From: Naegleria gruberi | Taxonomy: Eukaryota | Assembly: GCA_000004985.1 (NCBI GenBank) | Contig: GG739218.1 | Direction: 5' to 3' (one strand) | DNA length: 3,568 nucleotides | In this document: one piece after another, positions 1 to 3,568 of the stretch | How positions within the stretch are numbered: the first letter of the stretch is position 1 | Layout of the letters: each line of letters begins with the position of its first letter | The notes under the pieces: model-generated | Told to the model about the DNA's origin: nothing | Seen by the model: only the letters and a program-made list of their open reading frames with translations | Databases searched by the model: none | Made by a program: the position numbers and the translations under genes

Positions 1-330
1 TGCTCGATATCAATCATGTACTTTGATATGTGCCAATTATGTGATTTAATGGATTTAAATGAACCTCTTATTGCCTCTGAATGTATAGTTGGTCACTACG
101 TTGTAAGAAAGGAATTAGATTGTATCAAGGATATCAAAACGAACGAAGTTTTCAAAGTGGCATCTTTTTCAAAAGATTTTAATGAGATTACCTTAATTTC
201 CAACACCACCAATAAGACAAGGGAGATTAGTAGAAGTGAAGCATTTGAAATGCTCCCATGTGTTGTTGTCAAACTCCCTGATGAAGAGAAATATATTCCT
301 GTGCATTATTATGCATATCAATACTTTTAA
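1..330 (+). CDS. 3' portion of an unidentified protein-coding gene. The frame is open from base 1, so the 5' end is outside the window, and it ends at TAA 328-330. Product unknown.
   Basis: 110 consecutive sense codons in frame 1 is improbable in sequence this AT-rich. The first in-window ATG is at 16. The stop is immediately followed by or overlaps an AATAAA hexamer. I recognise no family from the translation (…EAFEMLPCVVVKLPDEEKYIPVHYYAYQYF*). Confidence 0.45.
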   Translation, partial: CSISIMYFDMCQLCDLMDLNEPLIASECIVGHYVVRKELDCIKDIKTNEVFKVASFSKDFNEITLISNTTNKTREISRSEAFEMLPCVVVKLPDEEKYIPVHYYAYQYF

Positions 331-334
331 TAAA
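329..334 (+). promoter_or_regulatory. AATAAA polyadenylation-signal-like hexamer overlapping the stop codon of the + strand ORF
   Basis: The sequence ttttAATAAAttg, with TAA at 328-330 and a second in-frame TAA at 331-333. The canonical eukaryotic poly(A) hexamer sits right at the ORF end. Such hexamers are common by chance in AT-rich DNA. Confidence 0.3.
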
Positions 335-370
335 TTGAAATTTATTGACTTGGAAATTTATTTGTTATTT

Positions 371-390
371 GAAATTGGAAAAATTTCCAA
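371..390. repeat. Short near-palindrome gaaaTTGGAAAaaTTTCCAAg, with 7-bp arms and a 2-bp spacer
   Basis: Read directly from the sequence. TTGGAAA at 374-380 is the reverse complement of TTTCCAA at 383-389. A further ttggaaattt copy lies at 350-359. Confidence 0.4.
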
Positions 391-414
391 GTTCCCTCCT
401 GCTAAGACAACTTT

Positions 415-475
415 TCGCTTGTTTGACGAAAATAGCTTGACGCAAAATCGTCAAAGTACCAGCACGCTTTGACAG
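415..475. repeat. GC-elevated block with three imperfect direct copies of GCTT(T)GAC(G/A) and one inverted TTGACG copy. Candidate protein-binding site cluster.
   Basis: Direct copies are cGCTTgTTTGACG (415-428), aGCTTGACG (434-442) and cGCTTTGACA (465-474). TTGACG at 437-442 and its reverse complement CGTCAA at 449-454 form a 6-bp stem with the 6-nt loop caaaat. TGACG is the half-site core of bZIP (ATF/CREB/TGA-type) factors, and TTGAC is the W-box core. Local GC is roughly 45-50%, against roughly 28% in the surrounding sequence. Confidence 0.4.
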
Positions 476-840
476 TAAGTGTTTAGCGGGTTTTGCAAGC
501 ACTTCAAAAATATTTTTATCGCCCTTAATAATTCAAAGAAAATGAGCATTTATTAAATCTGAAAAATAGAAAGAACGGAAACAACTTGCATCATTAAATT
601 CAAAATTAATTATTCGTTTGGACATTATTTGGAAAGAGGAAAGAGAATTAGTGACAGAGCAACACGGAGAAGAGTTCCAGTGATAGTGAACAATTAATAT
701 TGAAACCAACACATAGATTTTAAGATATAGTTACTCTCATTTACCAATATTTTGAATTAGTGGTGTCACCATCACATGTCTATAGAATTATTAAGAACAA
801 ACGTCCTATTAATTTGTAATAAATATACTATATTTCAATT

Positions 841-971
841 TTAAATTGTTGACTTTTGTACTTAATTGACTTCAGATACTGAGCCATCAATATGAAACTT
901 TCTCGGATTGTTCTCTCATCAAGGGGAGTGTATTCATATTTGATACTGGTATGATATTTTGTAAATTGACT
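841..971 (+). repeat. Recurring (A/T)AATTGACT motif
   Basis: ttAATTGACT occurs at 862-871 and taAATTGACT at 962-971. The 8-mer AATTGACT is therefore exact at 864-871 and 964-971, 100 bp apart. A related aaattgTTGACTttt lies at 843-857. Another ATTGACT lies at 344-350, 14 bp after the + ORF stop. By rough base-composition estimate, well under one copy of the 7-mer would be expected on one strand over about 700 bp. Confidence 0.35.
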
Positions 972-1026
972 GAGATGGAGTGTAATCTTTTTATTGAAAT
1001 GTGACATTTTGAAAGATTGTTATTAT
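887..1026 (-). CDS. Possible C-terminal coding tail on the minus strand, or the 3' UTR or subterminal region of the element. Translation …LSKCHISIKRLHSISVNLQNIIPVSNMNTLPLMREQSEKVSY*
   Basis: This is the only post-gap minus-strand frame that stays open, for 46 codons, down to a TGA at 887-889. The gap length is probably nominal, so continuity of frame with the transposase ORF cannot be established. I see no recognisable similarity to P-transposase C-termini. Confidence 0.15.
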
Positions 1027-2575: not shown

Positions 2576-3568
2576 GAATAATACAAGGTGTAGAACCAAT
2601 AGCAAATAATCTTTTTCCATTTAAAAGTTGACTAATTAACTTTCTTTGTAAATGTCTGGAATCACTGATGCCAACAAAAATATGGGCTTGTGTATCAATT
2701 TTAAGAAATGGAGCAGAATTGTAAATTGTAGATTCAGTACTAAATCTAGAAAGCACCTTGTTGAAATATGATCTATGTTCCGAAGCATTATCTCCACACA
2801 CTGAAATAATGTTTAATCCATAATCATCACACTCATCAACAATATCAAATACATATGTTTCCAATTCGCTGGTAGAATATTTAGTTTTTGGAATGACTCC
2901 AATTATAAATCCTTTCAAATTACTATTTCCATTTTTTAAATCCTCTATTCCTTCAATTGTATTTAACATGAATACTACTACATTAGAAGCAATTTCAAAT
3001 TGTTGTTCATTAGTTTGTTTCAAGAATTGCAGAAAATCCAAATCATTTTCTAATTGAATAACTTCTTCAAATCCATAAATTTTGTTGTCTGTTAAATCAA
3101 TAGAAATATCTTGATTTAGTGCTGTAGCATCAATAGATAAATTCAAAGAAATTCTATTGGATTCAGTAATTTTTCTTTCCGTGTTTCTTGAAAAAAAGCC
3201 ATGTGCTAATTTGATGAGAGTGGAGAAGGAGAGATCTGTGATTTTAGTTTTGATATTTTTTTTTAAAGTTTGTTTGGACGGAACTGGTGTTCCGTTGATT
3301 CTCATAAAATCCAATCCACTGGTGTTGTTATTCAGAGTTCTTTTGAATAAATTAATAGTTTCAGAGGAAAATCGTTTTTTAACTTTGAATAAATTCCGAA
3401 TCCAATCAAGCTTAATAATATCTTCCATAGTATGTTCTGATTTGTTCACTAGAGTTTTTAATGAATCAATTGATTTGCATAACTTGAGTTGAGATGAAGA
3501 CAGGTTGTTTTTCAATAGATTTCTCTCCGTACTTTCCTGCAATAACCTTTCATACCTTCGTTTGAGAC
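2576..3568 (-). CDS. P-element / THAP9-like transposase (Tnp_P_element family), internal fragment. Its N-terminus lies beyond the window edge and its C-terminal half is lost in the gap.
   Basis: 331 sense codons are uninterrupted on the minus strand. The frame is still open at 3568: upstream codons read …LKRRYERL- before the track's 'M', which is actually a TTG codon at 3540-3542. From memory, local matches to Drosophila P transposase are as follows. Heptad leucines (L-x6-L … L-x6-L-x6-L) match the leucine zipper. GTPVPSKQTLKKNI matches GFPLPSRTTLYRWL. ISLNLSIDATALNQDISIDLTDNKIYGFEE matches LCVLAFDEMKVAAAFEYDSSADIVYEPSDY, which holds the first catalytic D. LNIISVCGDNASEHRSYF matches LVVAIVSDLGTGNQKLW, which holds the second D. 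HIFVGISDSRHLQRKLIS matches KIFVFSDTPHLIKLVRNH. Confidence 0.75.

Follow-up and report, generated by a model that had tools for sequence, protein, structure and literature searches.

The stretch of contig GG739218.1 presented above, 3568 bases long and referred to here as the window, carries on its minus strand (3566-2577) part of a gene that very probably encodes a DDE cut-and-paste transposase of the P-element/THAP9 superfamily. The frame segment under study, 2576-3568, has a content of guanine and cytosine (GC) of 29.4%. Two catalytic aspartates and the D(2)H signature are conserved in the part that can be read. On comparison of sequences, the kinship to canonical P transposases is remote and detectable by family profiles only. 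The features of the gene are as follows, in coordinates of the window.

2577-3566, minus strand: open reading frame (ORF) of 330 codons, open at both ends, very probably the N-terminal third of the main exon of a P-superfamily transposase (translation with 0 stops, shuffles, PF21787, hhalign)

3459-3566, minus strand: residues 1-36, basic KRRYER followed by a leucine heptad, a possible coiled-coil or dimerisation segment (direct reading, heptad count)

3252-3386, minus strand: residues 61-105, a predicted helix-turn-helix-like DNA-binding segment that ends in GTPVPSKQTL (hhalign, BLASTP)

2757-3167, minus strand: residues 134-270, N-terminal half of the RNase H-like catalytic domain with D146 and D259 (PF21787, alignment with the relatives, hhalign)

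2640-2681, minus strand: residues 296-309, IFVGISDSRHLQRK, with the D(2)H signature, at which the insertion domain of P transposases begins (invariance among the relatives, alignment with canonical transposases)

1027-2575, no strand: 1549 N in a row, from masking or from an assembly gap, where the insertion domain, the glutamate block and the C-terminal part would be expected

1020-1025, minus strand: TAATAA, two in-frame stops right after the N run and a possible gene end (frame arithmetic and translation)

Read from 3566 to 2577 on the minus strand, the frame comprises 330 complete codons and no stop, whereas the remaining five frames of 2576-3568 contain 7-40 stops. A reading of this segment on the plus strand was rejected, with 40, 27 and 7 stops in its three frames. 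At a composition of 29.4% GC, 330 stop-free codons have a probability of about 3e-13; when the segment was shuffled 20,000 times, the longest stop-free stretch over all six frames had a mean of 65 codons and a maximum of 168. The original prediction was therefore right to consider chance improbable. GC at codon positions 1, 2 and 3 of the 2577-3566 frame is 34, 32 and 22%, which suggests coding sequence. The same prediction had called the frame uninterrupted and intact, with no mention of the minus strand. Both words can be kept for the visible third only, as the frame is open at either end, leaving the window at 3568 and meeting the N run at 2576.

Regarding the superfamily, the window protein matches the Pfam family PF21787 (TNP-like_RNaseH_N) with an E-value of 8.7e-7 and 29.8 bits, against a cut-off of 24.6, over residues 134-270 and profile positions 18-135 of 137; no other Pfam family matches it below E = 3. 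The two profiles that had been proposed as a check, PF12017 (Tnp_P_element) and PF05485 (THAP), do not match, the former even at E <= 10 and the latter in the visible protein, whose N-terminus lies past 3568; it is PF21787, a family of the same proteins, that does. NCBIfam, the phage and plasmid collections and viral contigs gave no match. The Drosophila P transposase sequence, confirmed to be that of PDB chain 6p5a_A, residues 140-561, was used as bait, and an alignment (A4) was made of 28 diverse canonical P/THAP9-type transposases, all with PF21787, PF21788 and PF21789. A second alignment (A2) holds four sequences, namely the window protein and its full-length relatives P0001, P0002 and P0003, which are described below. 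Compared with A4 by hhalign, the window protein aligns over residues 61-308 with a probability of 93.8% (E 1.7e-7), and the clade profile A2 aligns over 383 columns, from the helix-turn-helix through the glutamate block, with a probability of 94% (E 1.4e-7). These results bear out the original call of the superfamily. The aligned blocks are collinear between the window protein or its clade and the canonical P transposases, and hhalign pairs them as follows.

GTPVPSKQTL of the window with canonical LPSxsTL: helix-turn-helix block

LSIDATAL of the window with canonical LxFDEMxI: D146, first catalytic aspartate

VCGDNASEH of the window with canonical xxxDxxxxN: D259, second catalytic aspartate

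SDSRHL of the window with canonical DxPHL: D302 and H305

QLQEYxxENFYSxxRxxxGS, in the relatives only, with canonical LNQDxLENFFSxIRxxGG: catalytic glutamate block

On the minus strand, the first catalytic aspartate, D146 in LSIDATAL, is encoded at nt 3129-3131 and the second, D259 in VCGDNASEH, at nt 2790-2792, while D302 (nt 2661-2663) and H305 (nt 2652-2654) both lie within IFVGISDSRHLQRK. Alignments, together with the order of the fold in a model of P0002, place the first two catalytic aspartates on an RNase H-like fold, followed by D(2)H. The window protein and all three full-length relatives are identical at eight residues of this part, namely D146, D259, E263, H264, D302, R304, H305 and L306. 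In the Drosophila enzyme the catalytic triad is D230, D303 and E531, and D339 of the D(2)H motif starts the GTP-binding insertion domain; the counterparts of D230, D303, E531 and D339 in human THAP9 are D304, D374, E613 and D414 (PMC7776569; PMC8230255). A published account deals with what D339 and the D(2)H motif do in the Drosophila enzyme (PMC8230255). The second aspartate and the D(2)H motif are 43 residues apart in the window protein and 36-40 residues apart in the Drosophila and human enzymes (PMC8230255). The distance between the first two aspartates is 113 residues in the window protein, including an insertion of about 26 residues after strand 1 and smaller ones (hhalign against A4).

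Upstream of the catalytic domain, PSKQTL occupies residues 96-101 (nt 3264-3281, minus strand). BLASTP gives a short match of this segment to GFPLPSRTTL of the Drosophila enzyme, and P96, S97 and T100 are invariant in A2. The heptad at the start of the visible protein (L1, L8, R15, L22, L29, L36) has leucine at 5 of 6 positions, a pattern that the relatives do not share; its relative position is that of the leucine zipper in the Drosophila enzyme (PMC7776569). A zipper in the window protein, as originally proposed, is thus plausible but weak. The motif blocks that had been named, from the zipper to the segment after the second acidic block, are all present and in the stated order, except that the last one reads HLQRK, i.e., HLxxK and not HLxK.

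Relatives of the window protein are rare. An exhaustive HMMER scan of 1.84 billion representative proteins yielded five of them, and a word-indexed search of 5.8 billion proteins gave 0 matches to the window protein and likewise nothing new with the clade alignment. Three relatives are full length, P0001 (788 residues), P0002 (817 residues) and P0003 (769 residues), with 27-32% identity over residues 43-328 of the window protein, and two are fragments, P0004 (49% identity over residues 24-101) and P0005; the entries P0004/P0009 and P0002/P0008 are paired. Since the window protein matches PF21787 and the relatives have no Pfam match, the window protein bridges this small clade and the canonical family. 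In P0001-P0003, alignment with A4 locates the block QLQEYxxENFYSxxR about 180 residues after D(2)H. The region between them does not match PF21788, the insertion domain, and aligns to the canonical domain at low confidence; in this part, again at low confidence, the position that corresponds to the GTP-binding D444 is occupied by D, E or N, depending on the relative. Their loci have a GC content of 36-37%, against 29% in the window, and are not interrupted by N.

P0001-P0003 also have their last 180 or so residues in common, a predicted beta-rich region with SRxRRFDK, VGDYI, WxGxDYxxxIxW and RFxLxT. This C-terminal region has no significant Pfam match and lies outside the profile-profile alignment to canonical P transposases, which stopped near the glutamate block.

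Seven metagenomic contigs, which come from two samples of JGI and one of ENA, encode the sequence of 817 residues entered as P0002 and P0008. Comparison of these contigs delimits the following unit.

L003 195-3818 (also on L004-L009): complete related transposon of 3624 bp (contig comparison)

The unit is 100% identical in six contigs and 99.9% identical in L008, the similarity breaking sharply at the same two positions, and it has at least four distinct left flanks and at least five distinct right flanks. Its termini are inverted, GAGGGGGTGTAAATATTC..., with matches at 37 of the first 38 bases, and BLAST extends the repeat to about 48 bp at about 92%. The left flank of L006 ends with the 8-mer ACTTGTGC, with which the right flank of L008 starts, and the chance of such an agreement is about 3e-4 for 20 possible pairs. 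The ACTTGTGC pair may represent one insertion assembled into two contigs and is a candidate 8-bp target duplication. Target duplications are of 8 bp in P elements and of 7 bp in 1360 and Galileo (PMC3698922). The related element is demonstrably mobile and, judging from its sequence, looks recently active.

The unit has an ORF of 274 codons and another of 817, with 37 nt between them (L003 1174-1210) of the form GTAAAT...TTTTTAG; removal of these 37 nt fuses the ORFs in frame to encode a protein of about 1090 residues. Contig L001 has a 36-nt GTAAAT...TTTTGTAG at the homologous place, just upstream of basic ERERRRQMK. A short spliceosomal intron conserved between L003 and L001 points to a eukaryotic host. 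For L002, the search for an in-frame short intron of this kind gave only an unconvincing candidate of 101 nt, which was rejected. According to the alignment, the end of the window falls about 3 codons short of the homologous intron position; the window would therefore contain the start of the large exon, and any first exon would lie outside it. In L003, exon 1 (353-1173) encodes 274 residues with a very acidic tail, DDDVGDTEEQEDGDEDQYEEEDDEEL. It matches neither THAP nor any other Pfam family, and no C-x2-4-C...C-x2-H pattern was found on reading it. The contig of P0001 has a two-ORF layout like that of L003, with an ORF of 235 residues 44 nt upstream of the transposase ORF of 788 residues; this contig, 3463 bp long, is on record both in JGI 3300059473 and in NCBI GCA_041443065.1.

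At the window locus itself, 1-1026 holds no inverted or direct repeats of note, and the 5' end of the gene is outside the window. Further copies were found neither by degenerate-peptide scans of genome and metagenome contigs nor by an exact 40-mer in viral, metagenome and genome collections, which themselves do not contain the source sequence. Sensitive blastn against L001 and L002 gave a coding match only, with no shared element end, and window 1-1026 showed no similarity to them. It can be asked on these grounds whether the gene is a host gene domesticated from a P-type transposase, like vertebrate THAP9, i.e., single-copy, devoid of element ends and kept open by selection for a cellular role. 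The frame is indeed open across 330 codons, the 1 kb that follows the gene shows no inverted repeat or element end, the searches gave no second copy, and domestication of P transposases is recurrent (PMC7776569). But the missing ends and copies are uninformative because the window does not reach the 5' end and the search did not reach the source genome, the related element is clearly mobile, with identical copies and terminal repeats, and the catalytic D146 and D259 as well as D(2)H are all kept. Domestication is considered unlikely, a gene belonging to a transposable element being provisionally preferred.

Structure prediction from the window protein alone was useless (predicted local distance difference test, pLDDT, of 34). 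A model of P0002 made from eight sequences reached a pLDDT of 50 overall and of 55-80 over the catalytic N-terminal half. It has the order beta1-beta2-beta3-alpha1-beta4-alpha2-beta5 and then a helix, as in the RNase H fold, two of the strands being long. Searched with Foldseek against the PDB, the model matches the Drosophila P transposase 6pe2_A over 513 columns (E 2.5e-5), the sole match at E <= 1e-3; the next ones, Mos1 (4e-3) and Hermes, a hAT transposase (6e-3), are about 100-fold weaker. This low-confidence model gives weak support to the assignment to the P superfamily.

The P-like motifs could also be a common heritage in a member of another C/DxxH superfamily, such as Kolobok, hAT, MuDR or Dada. 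Like P elements, hAT elements make target duplications of 8 bp, and Hermes is the third-best structural match (E 6e-3). Yet the sole Pfam match is P-specific, and neither the window protein nor any full-length relative matches a hAT family (e.g., Dimer_Tnp_hAT) in Pfam, even when E-values up to 10 are admitted. The alignment of A2 with A4 is collinear over 383 columns including the PSxxTL and ENFFSxxR blocks, and the P transposase is the best structural match by 100-fold. Furthermore, the candidate duplication of the related element is 8 bp and not TTAA, and its termini start with GAGGGG, without the YARNG start of the hAT type. Kolobok and hAT had been named at the outset as families that might account better for the same motifs; no family gave a better match in Pfam, hAT included, and membership of another superfamily appears highly improbable, Kolobok having been weighed by termini and target.

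Several results nevertheless weigh against the assignment to the P superfamily, or against taking the locus for part of a mobile element. BLASTP against the Drosophila enzyme is not significant (E 0.21), hhalign of the clade profile with the single Drosophila sequence gives 2.9%, and sequence and profile searches of the PDB with the window protein and the clade profile returned no transposase. Taken singly, 0 of the 5 relatives match any Pfam family. The first two aspartates are 113 residues apart, against 70-73, and His264 stands where A4 has an invariant Asn. No more than a third of the gene can be read, and N covers the third catalytic residue, the insertion domain and the stop codon; no terminal repeat, target duplication or second copy was found for the window locus; and the 8-bp duplication of the related element is based on one flank pair from two different metagenomic contigs.

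With regard to the part of the gene under N, the run takes out about 60% of the presumed transposase gene and leaves one third visible. It may be a deliberate mask, or an assembly gap within a repeat, in which case its length would be estimated. If the run were of true length and free of frameshifts, the gene would have 847 codons within the window and end at TAATAA, an end that is compatible only, AT-rich DNA being stop-rich. The length hidden up to TAATAA would be 517 codons, against 477-496 residues past the equivalent point in the relatives. Reappearance of the C-terminus in another frame to the left of the N run was also considered. The peptides that leave the run in the other two frames, one of which ends at 887, have no similarity to the C-termini of the relatives (shuffle p 0.37-0.94), and this candidate was rejected.

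A dead or partial copy would have an open visible exon and a truncation, frameshift or internal deletion further on, under N or past it. P elements typically include copies with internal deletions. Contig L001, which carries the closest relative of the window protein (49% identity), retains the first 100 or so residues of the gene only and nothing downstream, and is thus a truncated copy; and the peptides in the other frames past the N run are unlike the C-termini of the relatives. On the other hand, 330 stop-free codons in DNA of 29% GC would be short-lived without selection or a recent origin, and the 517 hidden codons fit the 477-496 residues of the relatives. A dead or partial copy is accordingly regarded as somewhat unlikely, though as the most serious of the alternatives to a copy that continues in frame through the N run.

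To the left of the run, a second ORF of 109 codons occupies window 1-330 on the plus strand, convergent with the transposase gene. The start of the window truncates this ORF, which has an ATG at 16 and a stop at 328-330. An open stretch of this length is reached in 1.7% of shuffles of window 1-1026, and the ORF may be a gene or a chance stretch; neither Pfam nor NCBIfam gives a match, and it has no identical recorded product and no similarity to the related loci. In the 700 or so bases between this ORF and the N run (331-1026), there is no repeat, long ORF, tRNA or match to Rfam. This stretch may include the 3' untranslated part of the transposase gene and the end of the element, though without any marker. 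Scans of the window with Rfam and for tRNAs and tandem repeats found nothing relevant.

The contigs of the relatives carry other genes as well. Downstream of its transposase fragment, L001 has two related ORFs on the plus strand, 1504-1845 and 2400-2924, with the Cys/His-rich motif CPICIIK..HFG.EL.F......H.IHQ..HHQ..P, and this pair is an internal duplication. In L002 (2881-5718, minus strand), the transposase gene of P0003 adjoins tandem F-box-like/leucine-rich-repeat genes. The nearer of these copies has 83% DNA identity to its neighbour down to 3155 only; from there its ORF goes on with no such identity and overlaps the end of the transposase gene at 2881-3023, as if this copy had been truncated by, or fused to, the transposon. 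Sources of contigs with the relatives include JGI 3300000558 and 3300002220, ENA ERZ27315067 and NCBI GCA_041443065.1. Lineages of the clade co-occur, L001 with L004 in JGI 3300002220 and L002 with L009 in ENA ERZ27315067.

By analogy with canonical P transposases and with the relatives, a course of action can be proposed for the encoded enzyme. The basic segment with its leucine heptad would serve oligomerisation, and the predicted helix-turn-helix ending in PSKQTL would read the terminal repeats; its counterpart in P transposase binds their inner half. The RNase H-like core, whose first half is visible, would carry D146 on strand 1 and D259 after strand 4, and both residues, with a glutamate hidden by N, would coordinate two metal ions that serve in the cleavage of DNA and in strand transfer. 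The insertion domain, large and helical, would begin at D302-x-x-H305. This domain, the third catalytic residue (the Glu of the ENFYSxxR block in the relatives) and the C-terminal domain would lie inside the N run. As in the relatives, the enzyme would bind terminal inverted repeats of about 40 bp, cut the element out and insert it elsewhere, with duplication of 8 bp of the target. On the same analogy, the window copy may be complete, with its own Glu, its own element ends and an 8-bp duplication, and may be active now or have been so recently.

P elements are a classic model of cut-and-paste transposition. P transposase is the sole transposase known to require GTP. A tentative proposal is that the window protein and its five relatives may form a deeply branching family within the P superfamily that has not been described before, and whose AT-rich host would be a microbial eukaryote or a small invertebrate. 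Several features would set such a family apart: its N-terminal exon would lack THAP, a short intron would be conserved immediately before the basic/coiled-coil segment, strand 1 of the RNase H fold would be followed by an additional helix, His would take the place of Asn after the second aspartate, the beta-rich C-terminal domain would be conserved, and GTP might not be required. The novelty is modest, namely a rare and very divergent eukaryotic clade with five relatives among 1.84 billion representatives, which is otherwise ordinary selfish DNA, and current understanding of transposition is unchanged. The clade lies at the limit of detection, the window protein passing the Pfam cut-off and the full-length relatives not. 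Such a divergent branch helps to map the reach of the superfamily outside animals, and to separate the indispensable parts (D, D, D(2)H and the glutamate block) from those that are lineage-specific (THAP, Asn after the second aspartate and perhaps GTP binding). For annotation, it represents a repeat family that standard domain searches leave as "hypothetical protein".

Among known systems, hAT transposases differ in that no hAT Pfam domain is found here, the structural match to Hermes is weaker, and the helix-turn-helix and glutamate blocks are P-type. Kolobok elements share the C/DxxH signature with other DDE transposases, are often THAP-bearing and are present in protists (PMC9587614). The GA...TC termini of the related element would fit their RR/YY pattern, whereas its candidate duplication of 8 bp, not TTAA, and the P-type helix-turn-helix and glutamate blocks would set it apart. 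THAP9 shares PF21787, the family of the catalytic N-terminal half, and the D, D, D(2)H, E signature (PMC8230255), the Glu being seen here in the relatives only. In contrast, its defining N-terminal THAP zinc finger is not in exon 1 of the relatives, the N-terminus of the window protein being out of view, and it is a single-copy host gene where the relatives include multicopy elements with ends.

The closest likeness is to the Drosophila P transposase (PDB 6P5A/6PE2) and the P family of insects, with the same order of blocks, i.e., a coiled-coil-like segment, a predicted helix-turn-helix with PSxxTL, and the D, D and D(2)H of the RNase H domain, followed in the relatives by a helical insertion of about 180 residues and then the ExFFxxxR glutamate block. 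A relative's element also has terminal inverted repeats and a candidate 8-bp duplication, as have P elements (PMC3698922). Differences are found in the distance between the first two aspartates (113 residues here, 73 in Drosophila), in DA at the first aspartate for canonical DE, in His264 for the Asn that is invariant in A4 four residues after the second aspartate, in the termini of the relatives (GAGGGGGTGTAAATATTC...), which are unlike the 31-bp repeats of P, and in the N-terminal exon of the relatives, which lacks the THAP domain. P0001-P0003, which are full length and too distant to belong to the same element family as the window, nonetheless share with it D146, D259-x3-E263-H264, D302-x-R304-H305-L306 and the long spacing between the first two aspartates.

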